DNA from: a virus
DNA length: 64,000 nucleotides
IMG/VR virus record: IMGVR_UViG_3300045738_001221
Location: 1-64,000 of that record
Direction: 5' to 3' (one strand)
A model generated the notes under the pieces. The model was not told where the DNA came from. It searched no databases and saw only the letters and a list, made by a program, of their open reading frames with translations. This document shows, piece after piece, positions 24,566-41,921 of this stretch. The position numbers were made by a program, and so were the translations under genes. Each line of letters starts with the position of its first letter. Position 1 is the stretch's first letter.

Positions 24566-24838
24566 ATGACAATAAGTCTGCACGAGATGGGCGAAGGATA
24601 TATACAGAGTCTTAAATACAGAATAGAACGTAGCCAGCAGGAGGTACAGGAGCTTGTCCAACACCTTCAAGAGTGCGAAAATACCTTAAGCTTTGAAAAA
24701 AGTTCCAATCAATTCACCGAATGCTGCAATGCAGAATCTGATAAATACAATAGCACAGAAATCAAAGGGGGCGAAACGGCATCGACTGAGCATGTTGAAG
24801 AATATAAGCATGGAGTGGTTGATCAAGAGGCCACTTAA
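24566..24838 (+). CDS. Coiled-coil hypothetical protein running into the tmRNA 5' end
   Basis: AAGGGG RBS; last 72 nt overlap tmRNA. Confidence 0.5.
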   Translation: MTISLHEMGEGYIQSLKYRIERSQQEVQELVQHLQECENTLSFEKSSNQFTECCNAESDKYNSTEIKGGETASTEHVEEYKHGVVDQEAT

Positions 24839-25108
24839 AAACTTGATCAAACTAATAATTGCTGAAAAAGAAATTTTAGCGTTAGCTGCCTAGCAGCGGG
24901 GGTCGTGCCAACCCTCTTGCCAAATTGCACCGACTCCGATAATTCGGATAGAGTTCCCCCGCCTTGAATTAAGCAGGGGTGATAGCAATAATTTGCTTGA
25001 CTCAGATAACTCTGATAGCCTTGTTCATTGTGCGAATACAATGCACTAATCATGTAGAAAGTATTTGGATAATGTTACAGGACGCGGGTTCGACTCCCGC
25101 CGCCTCCA
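24767..25108 (+). ncRNA. ssrA: tmRNA; tag reading frame 24861-24893 encodes AEKEILALAA
   Basis: 5' GGGGGCG pairs with 3' CGCCTCC (G3.U70 Ala identity); 5' GGC-ATCGAC; T-arm GCGGG-TTCGACT-CCCGC; ATAATT-GCT resume context; tag ends ALAA-stop. Confidence 0.93.
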
Positions 25109-25120
25109 CTAAGGAAAAAC

Positions 25121-36200: not shown

Positions 36201-37451
36201 ATGCTAGACTTTTATTCAAACAGACGTGACTTTCTAAGGATAGGCAGTATTGGAGCAGGGATGTCCGCTCTAGGGCTTTCTGATATTGCTATGGGTCAGG
36301 AAGAGGCGCAAGAACTTAAAGATAGCTCTGTCGTGTGGGTATGGCTTGGGGGAGGCCCAACACAATTTGAAACATTCCACGCCCCAAAGGAAGACAGTGT
36401 TCCCTCTGAATACAGATCTGTGGGCGGCGCTTTGGTGGACAAGCCAACCGGAATGGCCTTTGGTTCTCATTGGCAAAACCTGATTAAGCAGGCCCCCAAG
36501 CTGAATGTAGTAGACTCCTTCACTCACGGAGACTCTTCTCACAGGCAGGCTACTCACTGGGTAATGACTTCCCACTACAACAAAGAACGAAGTCAAACAT
36601 CTAACTCTATGTTCCCATCTCATGGGTCTATTGTGTCTGCTGTCTATGGTGCCAACAACCCCAAAAACGGAGTTCCTACATATGTTAAACAGGGCAGGAT
36701 AGAAGGTGAAGATCCAGCGTGGTTGGGCGGAGCATACAAACCCTTCGACCCTTCAAATAAAGACAACCTAACCCCCAGAGTAGACATTGAGAGATTTACA
36801 AATAGAAATGAACTATTAAAGTCTCTTGCGGGTGTTAATATTCCTAGTCCATCAGCAGACTCTGTTACCAAATTCAATCAGCAGGCATTTGATGTAATCC
36901 TTGGAACAGCTAAAGACGCATTCAACTTGGACAAAGAAGATACAAAAATGAAGGAGGCTTATGGCGACACCCCAATTGGGAAACAACTCCTTCTTGCTCG
37001 GCGTCTATGTCAGTTTGGAACAAGGTTTGTTACTATCAATTATGGTGGTTGGGACATGCATGGCAACATCGCAAACGCACTTAAGGGAAGAGTTCCCCCT
37101 ATCGACAAAGCTCTTGCGGCTTTTGTAGAAGACGTGCAGCAAAGAGGTCTTAATGAAAAGATTCTCTTGATTGTCACTGGTGAATTTGGCCGTACCAAAC
37201 TTAACGCCAATGCGGGCCGCGATCATTGGCCCTCGATTTCCACAATGCTTATGTCGGGTGGAAGATATGACAGCGGTAGGGTTATAGGGAAGGCCGATAA
37301 GTCTTATACTCCATCGGAAAGTCCCTTTGGGCCTATCGATGTAGCTGCTACTATGTTTGATCATTTTGGCATTAATAAGAATATTCAGAGGGTTGACAAT
37401 GGGGGTCGTCCAAGATATTTGCTGGAAGGTGAAGCGAAAGTTATTTTATAA
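36201..37451 (+). CDS. DUF1501-family protein with Tat signal
   Basis: NRRDFLRIG; WLGGGPTQFETF; LLARRL; GWDMH; GEFGRT; GRDHWP. Confidence 0.9.
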   Translation: MLDFYSNRRDFLRIGSIGAGMSALGLSDIAMGQEEAQELKDSSVVWVWLGGGPTQFETFHAPKEDSVPSEYRSVGGALVDKPTGMAFGSHWQNLIKQAPKLNVVDSFTHGDSSHRQATHWVMTSHYNKERSQTSNSMFPSHGSIVSAVYGANNPKNGVPTYVKQGRIEGEDPAWLGGAYKPFDPSNKDNLTPRVDIERFTNRNELLKSLAGVNIPSPSADSVTKFNQQAFDVILGTAKDAFNLDKEDTKMKEAYGDTPIGKQLLLARRLCQFGTRFVTINYGGWDMHGNIANALKGRVPPIDKALAAFVEDVQQRGLNEKILLIVTGEFGRTKLNANAGRDHWPSISTMLMSGGRYDSGRVIGKADKSYTPSESPFGPIDVAATMFDHFGINKNIQRVDNGGRPRYLLEGEAKVIL

Positions 37452-37621
37452 TGAATAAATATATGCAAGCTGTCTATGAATATGTAAAGTCCAAGACTTA
37501 CTATGCGTATGAAGACCCTAGAACTGGGGAGATTTATTATTATAAAAGAAAGGGAGTATACAGAAAGAATGGGCGTGTCCTTGTTCTAGCAAAAGACTCC
37601 GAAGGAGGATCTAGTAAATGA
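37451..37621 (+). CDS. 56-aa Tyr/Lys-rich hypothetical protein (not in ORF track)
   Basis: TAATG and ATGA overlaps with both neighbours. Confidence 0.55.
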   Translation: MNKYMQAVYEYVKSKTYYAYEDPRTGEIYYYKRKGVYRKNGRVLVLAKDSEGGSSK

Positions 37622-37833
37622 CAATTATGCTAAGAAAAGCAGCACTTCTGCTTGGTGTGTTTGGCGTCGGTGCGTGGCTAATGTACTCAGCCCAAAATGG
37701 AAATTATGAAAGGCAAGACCTTCTCAAAGGAATAGCCTTGTGGTCACTTATTGGTTCCTTTGGACTATACATATGTTCGACGGGATTACTCAAGTTTCAT
37801 AGTCGAACTGTTGATAGGAAGGATAACCAATGA
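37618..37833 (+). CDS. Two-TM membrane protein
   Basis: AGGAGG RBS; two hydrophobic helices. Confidence 0.6.
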
Positions 37834-38153
37834 CAATTAAGTTAACAGAATCCGCAGGAGCAGAGGCTAAGAAATATCTTGAAGATACCGAAGAAAAGTA
37901 TCTAAGGATTGCCGTGGAGGGCGGTGGATGCTCTGGCTTTCAGTATAATTTAACAGTAGTCGATGACTACGATGAAGAAAAAGATACACTGTCTAATCAA
38001 CATGGCGTAGACGTTATCGTAGACAAGAAAAGCGATCTATACTTAGATGGCACCACCTTAGATTATTATACCGACATTTCCAAGCGTGGTTTTATGTTTG
38101 ACAACCCAAACGCAGTTAAATCCTGTGGTTGCGGAAGCAGTTTTCAGGTATAA
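37830..38153 (+). CDS. iscA: A-type Fe-S cluster carrier (IscA/HesB family)
   Basis: [28 protein letters not shown]. Confidence 0.93.
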
Positions 38154-38188: not shown

Positions 38189-38359
38189 ATGGTAGAAAAA
38201 AAGAAAAGAAGCAAGTTTAAGATCATGCTTATAGCATTGGGAATTGCCGCAATTATAATCTTTAGTAGTCCCAAATATAAGGCTAAGTTCTTAGAGATAA
38301 TCGGAATGGGTGGAGATACTTCCGGTGAAGTGGAGGCCCCAGAGGAAAACGAGGAATAA
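38189..38359 (+). CDS. Small single-TM protein
   Basis: GGGAG RBS; basic N-terminus then hydrophobic helix. Confidence 0.55.
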   Translation: MVEKKKRSKFKIMLIALGIAAIIIFSSPKYKAKFLEIIGMGGDTSGEVEAPEENEE

Positions 38360-38383
38360 AAGAAACCTAAAAGGAGATAAGTT

Positions 38384-38668
38384 ATGGTTAAACTAGGAGA
38401 TTGGTTACAAAGAACGGAATGTCCGCTTGCGGGGAAAGCTCCGTTTGACTGACATGAATATTCTATCGCACAGGTTGTGCGTATTGACAAGGAGTATGTT
38501 GAGGTCAACTTTGCTTGTAACTGCATGACCTTCGACAGTAGTAATACAAAAATGTGGTATCATGGAGAATATAAGCCCATCGACGACGAATCTTATGTAA
38601 CACATAAGAAATCCCACGATAGTTGCTGCCTATTTGATAAAGAATTAGAGATTGAATATGCAGCGTAG
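38384..38668 (+). CDS. Candidate selenoprotein (94 aa, in-frame TGA at codon 23), or else a pseudogene
   Basis: AAGGAG RBS 7 nt before ATG 38384; TGA at 38450-38452 in frame with ORF 38477..38668; SECIS-like hairpin 38464-38483. Confidence 0.55.
38450..38485 (+). promoter_or_regulatory. Candidate bacterial SECIS element
   Basis: UA-(bulged U at +17)-CGCACA-GGU-UGUGCG-UA shortly 3' of the UGA. Confidence 0.5.
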
Positions 38669-39878
38669 AAATTTTATCAAGCACTTATCCTTTCTTCCAG
38701 CTATACCCTTGGTGGAATCCATACGCGCCAACCAGAAGGATATAAAGAAGAGGGGTAAGTCTGCTATTCTTTTATGGATGGGAGGTGGTCCATCTAGTAT
38801 GGATATATGGGACCTGAAGCCGAGAGCCCCTACTGGGGGGCCATTCAGACCTATTTCAACTTCTGGAGACTTACAAATTTGTGAGCACATGCCCCACATG
38901 GCAAAGCAGATGCATAACATGGCCGTCATTAGGTCCATGAGTACTTCTGAGGCCGACCACACTAGGGGCAGCTACTACATGCACACAGGCTACAAGCCCA
39001 ACCCCACCATGGAGCACCCAAGCTACGGAGCTGTAGTATCGCATGAACTAAAGCCGGAGAACTTAAGCATACCCCCCTTTATATCAGTGGGCGGCAATAG
39101 TCTCGGTGGGGGCTTTTTGGGTGTTCGACATGCCCCCTTTGTGGTAAATAGCGACGGTCGCATCAGAAACCTTAACATGAAGGTAGATGCTCGTTTTCAT
39201 CAAAGAGCATTTGCATTAGATGTCCTTGAAGATAACTTTATTAACCAGAACAGAGGGTCTATGGCAAAAGACCATAGAGATATTCTGAAACAAACCTTTG
39301 AGGTTCTTACGAGTGAACAAATGAATGCCCTAAAGGTGGCAGAAGAGCCAGAAAACGTTAAGGAGAGGTACGGTGACAATAGCTTTGGCAAGGGATGCCT
39401 GATGGCAAGAAGGCTTGTTGAGGCGGGTGTTCCGTTTGTTGAAGTAAGTCTAGGGGGATGGGATAATCATCAGAATATTTTCCCAACTTTAAAGGACACG
39501 AAGCTTCCAATGCTAGACCAAGGCATGAGCGCCCTTATTGAAGACCTTGAACAAAGGGGCCTTCTGCAAGACACTGTTATTATTTGGATGGGAGAGTTCA
39601 GTAGAACCCCTCGCATCAATGGTAATGCCGGTAGGGATCACTGGGCCCGAAGCTGGAGCCTTGCTGTGGGGGGCGGTGGAATGAATACTGGCATTGCAAT
39701 TGGAAAAAGCAATGAAGATGGAACGAAGGTAGAAACGACACCATATATGTCACAAGATATTATGGCTTCCGTATGCAAGGCCCTCGGAATACCCCTAAGC
39801 ACAACCTTTACTAGTAAGAATGGTAGACCCATGAAGATAGCTAATTCAGGTAAAATTATTGGAGATTTATTTTCATGA
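38658..39878 (+). CDS. Second DUF1501-family protein with Tat signal
   Basis: QRRNFIK; LWMGGGPSSMDIWD; LMARRLVEAGV; GWDNH; GEFSRTP; GRDHW. Confidence 0.9.
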   Translation: MQRRNFIKHLSFLPAIPLVESIRANQKDIKKRGKSAILLWMGGGPSSMDIWDLKPRAPTGGPFRPISTSGDLQICEHMPHMAKQMHNMAVIRSMSTSEADHTRGSYYMHTGYKPNPTMEHPSYGAVVSHELKPENLSIPPFISVGGNSLGGGFLGVRHAPFVVNSDGRIRNLNMKVDARFHQRAFALDVLEDNFINQNRGSMAKDHRDILKQTFEVLTSEQMNALKVAEEPENVKERYGDNSFGKGCLMARRLVEAGVPFVEVSLGGWDNHQNIFPTLKDTKLPMLDQGMSALIEDLEQRGLLQDTVIIWMGEFSRTPRINGNAGRDHWARSWSLAVGGGGMNTGIAIGKSNEDGTKVETTPYMSQDIMASVCKALGIPLSTTFTSKNGRPMKIANSGKIIGDLFS

Positions 39879-40715: not shown

Positions 40716-40918
40716 TGGACTTTTTAAATATTACTAAATTTTTAGTTATCTTTGCCTTTTGCACCATCTTCATCTGGGATGTTGCAGTTATGCTTTTTGC
40801 TAAAGACTTAAGTGCTACAATTAGCTATGCAATATATACAATATCTTGTGAACATCCTATAATATCCTTTGCAATTGGCGTTTTATGTGGTCATGTTTTT
40901 TGGCCTCTCAAGTCGTGA
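40715..40918 (+). CDS. Small two-TM membrane protein
   Basis: AGGAGG RBS, TAATG overlap; ends GVLCGHVFWP. Confidence 0.6.
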   Translation: MDFLNITKFLVIFAFCTIFIWDVAVMLFAKDLSATISYAIYTISCEHPIISFAIGVLCGHVFWPLKS

Positions 40919-40925
40919 GAAATAT

Positions 40926-41921
40926 ATGGTTAAAGTTGGCGTAGTCGGATATGGAACAATAGGAAAGCGTGTAGCCGATGCAATACTTCTACAGGACGAC
41001 ATGGAGCTTGTCGGAGTTACTGCAAATACTTATAATTATAGAATTAAAACGGCACACAAAAAGGGAATAAAAATATTTACAATTGATTCCCTTTTACCCA
41101 TATGTTGGCACAGCATAGATATAGCTGGTAACTTTGATGATCTAGTTAAGCGGTCTGATATTATTGTAGACTGCACACCAAAAGGCACTGGCCGCAACAA
41201 CAAAAAACGGTATAAATATTATGGAACTAAAGCCATTTTTCAAGGAGGGGAAGACCCCGACATTGGCAAAAGCTTTGTTTCTCAATGCAACTATGATGAA
41301 GTCGTTGGATCGGACTTCATCCGGGTAGTTAGCTGCAACACTACGGGGCTTTGCCGAACCCTTTATCCCATTGATCAAAACTATGGCATAGATAAAGTCC
41401 ACGCCACCATGATCAGAAGGGCCGCTGATCCTTGGGACATATATCATGGCCCCATCAACGCCCTTGTTCCACATTTGATAGTCCCATCACATCATGGACC
41501 CGATGTTAGAACTATCATTCCCGACTTGGAGATATTTACCACCTCCATATCTGCTCCCACGACGTTAATGCACATGCACAGCATTACTGTTGATCTCAAA
41601 GTGGAACCTACCGTCGAGGAGACCATAAGACTATTTGAGGACACAACAAGGGTTCGCGTCGTACACAATTCCGATGGAATACGGTCAACAGCCGAAATTA
41701 TGGAATATGCTAACGATCTTGATAGGAGCAGGGGCGATATGCCGGAAGTGTGCGTATGGAGCGACACTATTGGGGTGTGGAACAAGAAGCTGTTATATAT
41801 ACAAGCAGTCCATCAAGAAAGCGATGTGATTCCAGAAAACATTGATGCAATCAGGGCGTCGATGGGAATCTGTAATAAAAACGAAAGCATTAGATTAACA
41901 AATTCCAGCTTGGATATATAG
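40926..41921 (+). CDS. gap: Type II (archaeal-type) glyceraldehyde-3-phosphate dehydrogenase
   Basis: GYGTIGKRVADA, DCTPKG, FQGGE, RVVSCNTTGL, RRAADP, SHHGPDV, QAVHQES..PENIDAIRA. Confidence 0.92.
   Translation: MVKVGVVGYGTIGKRVADAILLQDDMELVGVTANTYNYRIKTAHKKGIKIFTIDSLLPICWHSIDIAGNFDDLVKRSDIIVDCTPKGTGRNNKKRYKYYGTKAIFQGGEDPDIGKSFVSQCNYDEVVGSDFIRVVSCNTTGLCRTLYPIDQNYGIDKVHATMIRRAADPWDIYHGPINALVPHLIVPSHHGPDVRTIIPDLEIFTTSISAPTTLMHMHSITVDLKVEPTVEETIRLFEDTTRVRVVHNSDGIRSTAEIMEYANDLDRSRGDMPEVCVWSDTIGVWNKKLLYIQAVHQESDVIPENIDAIRASMGICNKNESIRLTNSSLDI

Follow-up and report, generated by a model that had tools for sequence, protein, structure and literature searches.

Can a bacterial virus carry a selenocysteine (Sec) gene of its own? 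Known cases of selenocysteine insertion come from cells and from a few poxviruses with stolen host genes. The question is raised by a short gene in the IMG/VR virus record IMGVR_UViG_3300045738_001221, of which positions 1 to 64,000 were analysed (hereafter the window): its frame meets a TGA at codon 23 and stays open beyond it, and a first-pass annotation of the DNA proposed that the phage borrows the Sec machinery of its host to decode this UGA. The features of the locus are as follows.

38371..38376, + strand: Shine-Dalgarno sequence AAGGAG, 7 nt ahead of the start codon
38384..38668, + strand: candidate Sec ORF, 94 codons from ATG to TAG (38666-38668), with the Sec candidate at codon 23
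38450..38452, + strand: UGA in frame at codon 23, where Sec is proposed to be inserted (TGA in all 63 family members)
38467..38481, + strand: SECIS-type hairpin CGCACA-GGU-UGUGCG, 14 nt past the UGA (CGCACA 38467-72, GGT 38473-75, TGTGCG 38476-81)
38658..39878, + strand: downstream DUF1501 gene with a Tat-type RR signal (Pfam DUF1501, E = 3e-104)
36201..38153, + strand: upstream context, comprising a DUF1501 paralogue (36201-37451), two small ORFs and an IscA-type Fe-S assembly protein (37830-38153; Pfam)

The coordinates given in the first-pass annotation for the AAGGAG, the ATG at 38384, the TGA at codon 23 and the open frame to the TAG were all verified, as was the overlap of the gene with the start of the next one, which amounts to 11 nt onto the DUF1501 ATG at 38658. 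In relatives, AAGGAG or AAGGAA is found at the equivalent place.

The record is taken to be viral on the basis of its IMG/VR classification, its PHROG matches (which include phage-type helicase, primase, and recombinase genes), the dense packing of genes on the same strand, and the confinement of the candidate family to viral and marine contigs. With PHROGs, no structural genes could be recognised in the record, and the large ORFs at 64-76 kb had no match. Relatives of the helicase among isolates are all below 30% identity, so cultured phages provide no clue to the host. At the end of the record lies an ORF of 1625 residues (L206:4498-9375; G000 68498-73375, minus strand), which, like its neighbours, has no PHROG match; these may be novel structural proteins.

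Conservation of the UGA and the reading of database homologues

A search with the read-through product recovered full-length homologues from public protein collections (P0002-P0004, P0007, and P0012), which aligned on both sides of the stop and all had a "W" at column 23. Tryptophan in homologues was among the findings that the first-pass annotation had listed as telling against Sec. Every DNA copy that we recovered has TGA at this codon, however, and, judged from these copies, the "W" in the databases is an artefact of gene calling with table 4; P0002, for instance, is locus L007 read through both the codon-23 TGA and the true terminal TGA into the next gene. DNA for P0012, the most distant of the "W" homologues, was sought in viral and metagenome contigs and not found there. 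Called with table 11, genes of the family appear as stubs of 45-75 residues that begin just past the hairpin (e.g., P0006, P0010, and P0014). The table-4 and table-11 miscalls are a systematic annotation artefact for phage UGA-recoded genes: standard gene callers split them, leaving 63-residue stubs, or mistranslate them as table-4 "W" proteins.

The family as assembled from DNA consists of the window, 10 IMG/VR loci (the nine found first and the more distant L011), and 52 marine metagenome loci (Tara Oceans and JGI). TGG or TGY was never seen at codon 23 in any of these, and the TGA persists down to about 48% amino acid identity; L011, put at 43% identity, also has it. A sequencing error, against which the first-pass annotation had cautioned, is excluded by the presence of TGA in 63 independent assemblies. 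The following base is also largely retained, with a UGA-C context in 59 of the 63 members. No indels were found across the family, and both the 22-codon upstream part and its frame relation to the remainder are invariant in all copies. In the codons on either side of the UGA, changes are mostly in third positions and replacements are conservative; at codons 24-26, close relatives differ by third-position, synonymous changes only, and distant relatives by conservative swaps (E/D, Y/F/W, and I/V). From this pattern of substitution we conclude that both sides of the UGA are under coding selection in one frame.

Elsewhere TGA is an ordinary terminator, as the first-pass annotation had maintained. 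It ends 23 of 98 crude ORFs, many of them in ATGA overlaps, and in L007, L009, and L160 it ends the Sec-gene homologue itself, so that any recoding would be specific to the site. A scan of the viral record gave no credible second case of a gene with a read-through TGA. No tRNA-Sec or UGA suppressor tRNA was found in the window and four related viral records (45-125 kb), and neither selD nor selB was found in the partial viral records searched. The GTG at 38477, which the first-pass annotation had considered as an alternative start and discounted for its lack of a ribosome binding site, proved to be a moot point: one subgroup has GCG there, so the start is not conserved.

Pairs of Sec and Cys homologues are the usual hallmark of selenoprotein families, although they are not strictly defining. 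Homologues with Cys at codon 23, which the first-pass annotation had led us to expect, were not found in protein collections (4 hits in 5.8e9 proteins and 14 hits in 1.84e9 representatives), in 185k genomes, or in viral or metagenome contigs. Family members of any kind were absent from 185,579 prokaryote species genomes and from 50,697 deposited phage genomes, and the family appears to be small and phage-only. The method used for the GOS selenoproteome requires Cys homologues (PMC2398784), so screens of this type would miss the phage family by design; a later reanalysis of GOS placed few or no viral sequences in selenoprotein families.

Three long profile matches (P0009, P0013, and P0016) were set aside as TPR or beta-propeller repeat proteins, probably spurious, and alignment A4, the broad one, proved too divergent to be scanned for patterns. 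One 63-aa protein from ENA, P0005, is 94% identical to the candidate C-terminus over its C-terminal 34 residues and has an unrelated N-terminus; it may be a frameshifted or recombinant copy.

The hairpin and its counterpart in Pirellulales selD

Folded as a single sequence, the hairpin is unremarkable (z = -0.13), and the case for it therefore rests on comparison. Stem cells are paired at a level of 98.7% in 38 distinct 45-nt segments, and two of the pairs show compensatory change: pair 18-32 is C-G in 22 segments and U-A in 15, and pair 21-29 is A-U in 31, G-C in 4, and G-U in 3. Having G-C at pair 21-29 costs a Val-to-Ala replacement. The GGU loop, at +21 to +23 relative to the UGA, is invariant across the family. 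None of 500 shuffles matched the observed pairing values, slid controls collapsed, and RNAalifold returned exactly the CGCACA-GGU-UGUGCG hairpin and no other. When amino-acid-invariant codons were compared among the ten closest sequences, synonymous variation was seen in only one of the six codons 27-32, versus 37 of 41 elsewhere (Fisher p = 4.5e-4). On these comparative grounds, we conclude that the hairpin is under selection as RNA.

The hairpin described in the first-pass annotation is accordingly present, conserved, and covarying. Its UA...UA lower stem with a bulged U17 is a different matter: it is not conserved, position +33 being U, A, or C, and the analogy drawn from the bulged U to the E. 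coli fdhF element fails with it. An Rfam scan of 38300-38700 gave nothing relevant, bacterial SECIS elements being poorly represented in Rfam. According to the bacterial SECIS consensus of Zhang and Gladyshev, the apical loop reportedly lies 16-37 nt from the UGA and has a G in its first two positions, usually as GU. The phage element, with a stem of 6-7 bp and a GGU loop 20 nt past the UGA, has a geometry that fits the consensus as so reported.

The same hairpin occurs in the selD genes of Pirellulales. In 16 of these genes, a Sec-UGA at the catalytic position is followed by it; the position (...CAG-U-AGK...) is the known catalytic Sec/Cys site. As in the phage, the element lies downstream of the in-frame UGA and takes the form (Y)CGCACA-GGU-UGUGCG(R), and the variants UGCACA/UGUGCA and CGCGCA with a G-U pair occur in phage and selD alike. 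The selD hairpin of genome G009, ATCGCACAGGTTGTGCG, is identical to the phage hairpin at 17 of 18 nt, and that of G005 is a UGCACA...GUGCA variant also found in the phage subgroup L011. The selD hairpins covary on their own (e.g., CGCUCA/UGAGCG in L110), and the hairpin is absent from two selD genes of the Cys type. Each of two ~5-Mb genomes contains a single copy of the 13-mer GCACAGGTNGTGC, located within selD.

A covariance model (R1, 19 nt) was made from 14 Pirellulales selD hairpins only. Run blind, it gave a single plus-strand match in each of 11 viral sources (the window and the ten loci), always to the hairpin after the in-frame UGA, with scores of 21.6-30.8 bits and E from 1e-3 to 2e-6; the match in the window is at 38465-38483 (28.6 bits, E about 1e-5). 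Over the 419 kb of five whole viral records, R1 matched once per record, at the Sec gene. In G005 and G009, the real selD sites scored 27-32 bits and the next best match no more than 20 bits, and none of the weaker matches in host genomes stands beside an in-frame UGA, selD excepted. Because a model drawn from selD alone finds the Sec gene alone, the phage hairpin is, as far as R1 can discriminate, indistinguishable from a true SECIS of the host lineage.

The two elements differ in their surroundings. The spacer between the UGA and the stem is 14 nt in the phage versus 26 nt in selD, a difference of 12 nt, and the selD hairpin sits behind an additional covarying hairpin and within a basal stem, both of which are absent from the phage gene. 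The proteins are unrelated, the selD product being a PurM-like kinase of ~350 aa and the phage product an SH3-like protein of 94 aa, and selD has Cys forms, whereas none was found for the phage family. Both genes encode IAQVV(R) at the hairpin, and part of the nucleotide identity could stem from this shared peptide; the freezing of synonymous positions, together with the covariation, argues that the RNA rather than the peptide is the constraint. It is possible, though in our view doubtful, that the phage hairpin is a captured or mimicked host selD SECIS, by which phage protein synthesis would be wired to the selenium status of the host and would compete with selD mRNA for SelB. If that were true, a bacterial virus would both make a selenoprotein and tap or throttle the selenium pathway of its host.

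Two observations concern selD itself. The SECIS of Pirellulales selD (L090, L091, and L113-L126) is apparently three-part, with a basal stem, GGGCAAG...CUUGCCC, enclosing a first covarying hairpin (e.g., AUUGCC-UCAGAC-GGCAAU in one form and CUUCC-ACA-GGAAG in another) and the GGU-loop hairpin; we know of no description of this architecture. Residues 16-20 of the phage product (AGKAP, encoded at window 38426-38440) resemble the AGKLP just past the selD Sec. An origin of the 5' end of the phage gene in selD was considered and rejected, as AGKAP is not conserved in the family (consensus PLxGxxPFD) and the resemblance is probably a coincidence.

Probable host lineage and the proposed decoding of the UGA

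Marine Pirellulaceae and other Planctomycetota have proteins 63-72% identical to the product of the downstream DUF1501 gene and account for 55 of its 57 hits. This one host-like gene suggests that the host is probably a marine Pirellulales planctomycete. The first-pass annotation had made its proposal dependent on Sec machinery in the host, and the lineage is divided in this respect: the machinery is present in some marine Pirellulaceae and absent in others. Five genomes with DUF1501 homologues were checked. G005 has a full set, with tRNA-Sec (63.6 bits), selB (366 bits), selA (546 bits), and a selD whose frame contains a TGA; in G009, tRNA-Sec and a Sec-type selD are present; and G006 has selA, selB, tRNA-Sec, and a fused selD of the Cys type. 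The Sec trait is absent from the two further Pirellulaceae genomes, which have close DUF1501 homologues. More broadly, selD was found in 49 of 121 sampled Pirellulales genomes (~40%), with an in-frame TGA in 24 selD matches. The match of a phage SECIS to a host gene would represent a new kind of phage-host linkage signal.

We estimate at roughly 80% the probability that the product of the gene is a selenoprotein of 94 residues, from a phage-only family, with Sec inserted through the host machinery. In an infected host that is competent for Sec, and is probably a marine planctomycete of the Pirellulales, SelB.GTP.Sec-tRNA(Sec) of the host would bind the GGU-loop hairpin 14 nt past UGA-23, and Sec would be delivered at this codon in place of termination by release factor 2; the other UGAs of the genome, which have no such hairpin, would still terminate. 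The conserved UGA, the single coding frame, the covarying hairpin, the match to selD, and a host lineage that bears Sec genes favour a selenoprotein. Its weak points are the missing Cys homologue, the mismatch in spacer length, the lack of a CxxU motif, a host deduced indirectly, and P0012, whose DNA was not traced. The proposal made in the first-pass annotation thus gains support. It had named Trp in homologues, a hairpin that is not conserved, an error in the reads, and a host lineage devoid of Sec machinery as grounds for abandoning it, and none of these was encountered, the last in the sense that some genomes of the lineage have the Sec genes.

The same frame could also be completed without selenium, if the hairpin slowed termination and a near-cognate tRNA (Trp, or Cys/Arg) decoded UGA-23; the gene would then yield the 94-residue protein alongside a 22-residue peptide. 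The conserved TGA, the one frame, and the conserved hairpin fit such programmed readthrough equally well. Cys homologues were not found, an aromatic residue would suit the FD-x-HEY surroundings, and the prevailing UGA-C context is in keeping with it. We nevertheless consider it unlikely, as it leaves unexplained the identity with the hairpin at the selD Sec codon and the invariant GGU loop, and as TGG would be expected in at least one of the 63 diverged copies if Trp were tolerated. To our knowledge, SECIS elements apart, stimulation of readthrough by a downstream hairpin is not established in bacteria.

Other readings deny that the frame is continuous or that the UGA is special. The locus might hold two cistrons, a 22-codon leader that ends at the UGA and a 63-residue protein whose re-initiation is controlled by the hairpin, which may still bind SelB in the manner of the SECIS-like element that autoregulates E. 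coli selAB. Table-11 gene callers output exactly these cistrons (P0006, P0010, and P0014), and GTG 38477 lies within the 3' arm of the hairpin, so that unfolding could gate the start. Codons 24-31, from the UGA to the GTG, evolve as coding sequence, however, and the length of the leader and its frame relation to what follows, free of indels in 63 copies, are not what two separate cistrons would lead one to expect. The L162 subgroup, to which 8 of the listed loci belong, has GCG in place of the GTG, and the first ATG to follow in frame is codon 48, within the conserved CxCM motif; moreover, the N-terminal 22 residues are conserved, and the structural model puts a strand at residues 7-10 in the same barrel as the rest. 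Taken as a whole, these findings make two cistrons very improbable. We give almost no credence to a broken or mis-assembled gene, or to a genome in which all UGAs are sense codons (table 4 or 25), a notion to which the public translations of some copies with TGA as W (P0002-P0004) lend a superficial appeal. The identical TGA is under purifying selection in independently assembled copies, which speaks against damage or error. Reassignment is at odds with the use of TGA to end 23/98 ORFs, often in tight ATGA overlaps, with a table-11 map that is at least as compact as the table-4 map (71.8 vs 70.5 kb coding), and with the table-4 reading of P0002, which overruns the true stop and enters the gene that follows; a search for UGA-decoding tRNAs found none, and there is one credible internal TGA only.

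The product, its genomic setting, and known systems

Read as a selenoprotein, the product has invariant residues in the family alignment that include Sec23, Cys45, Cys47, Cys82, and His78. An AlphaFold model made with a 27-sequence alignment (pLDDT 87) has a five-stranded SH3-like barrel and a C-terminal helix. Its fold matches are generic, with a best E of 0.012 in Foldseek and a best Z of 6.4 in VIA, where the matches are PsaE, NdhS, KOW, and HspQ-like barrels. The protein has no Pfam or PHROG match, and Sec23 lies outside any CxxU/UxxC redox motif. Going by the model and the invariant residues, the product is likely a small metal-binding or selenylsulfide redox protein, its role being a guess. 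The gene is translationally coupled to a DUF1501 gene in most relatives, and its product may therefore act in the service of the DUF1501/IscA island encoded with it.

In the window and in L004, a related 125-kb viral contig, the candidate gene is part of a DUF1501 paralogue island, and it overlaps the DUF1501 gene that follows; IscA is also present in the window. The genes that neighbour the Sec gene are different in the distant L011 lineage. L004 (2182-6492) contains DUF1501 paralogues in a tandem array of three; the Sec gene separates the second from the third, and the third is followed by a 1132-residue ORF that has no Pfam match; the set is a notable phage expansion of an exported enzyme family typical of planctomycetes. 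In L011 (245-1480), a 411-residue ORF with a Cas12f1-like TNB domain (TnpB-like) lies ~3.5 kb upstream of the Sec gene.

E. coli fdhF is the prototype of bacterial selenoprotein genes that use the SECIS/SelB system. It shares with the phage gene a stem-loop within the ORF directly 3' of the UGA, an apical G-U about 20 nt after it (G23/U24 in fdhF and G24-G25-U26 in the phage), and a similar upper stem (GCA-GGUC-UGC in fdhF and GCACA-GGU-UGUGC in the phage). The phage element differs in having neither a conserved bulged U17 nor a long lower stem, and its loop is 3 nt, or 5 if the closing A-U pair opens; the protein families are unrelated, and the phage gene is viral. In phage Qbeta, the A1 protein arises by readthrough of the UGA of the coat protein gene, through leaky near-cognate decoding by Trp. 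There, too, an in-frame UGA is decoded to extend a product, but Qbeta has no SelB-type hairpin and the readthrough portion is a C-terminal extension, whereas in the present gene it forms the body of the protein. Among viruses of eukaryotes, molluscum contagiosum and fowlpox viruses encode glutathione peroxidase homologues as viral selenoproteins (PMC6769590, PMC8310308). These resemble the phage gene in being virus-encoded UGA-Sec proteins that depend on host Sec machinery; they differ in that they are captured host GPx genes with a eukaryotic SECIS in the 3'-UTR, whereas the phage gene has a bacterial SECIS within the ORF and no cellular homologue was found.

Full-text searches over about 8 million papers found no published selenoprotein encoded by a bacteriophage. 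The mechanism proposed here is the known bacterial one; what would be new is the bacteriophage carrier, a family with no cellular member or Cys form, and a SECIS that matches selD. The sequence comparisons suggest that Sec genes without a cellular counterpart can exist in bacterial viruses and be read with the aid of the host SelB. The element is very short and well defined (a UGA, 14 nt, and a 15-nt hairpin), and it offers a natural system in which the spacing requirements of SelB-dependent recoding could be examined.

Two further features of the window deserve mention. A phage-borne tmRNA gene, with the tag peptide AEKEILALAA, was identified by ARAGORN at 24767-25109, and an ORF at 40869-41921 that resembles a type II (archaeal-type) GAPDH adjoins a PhoH-like gene.
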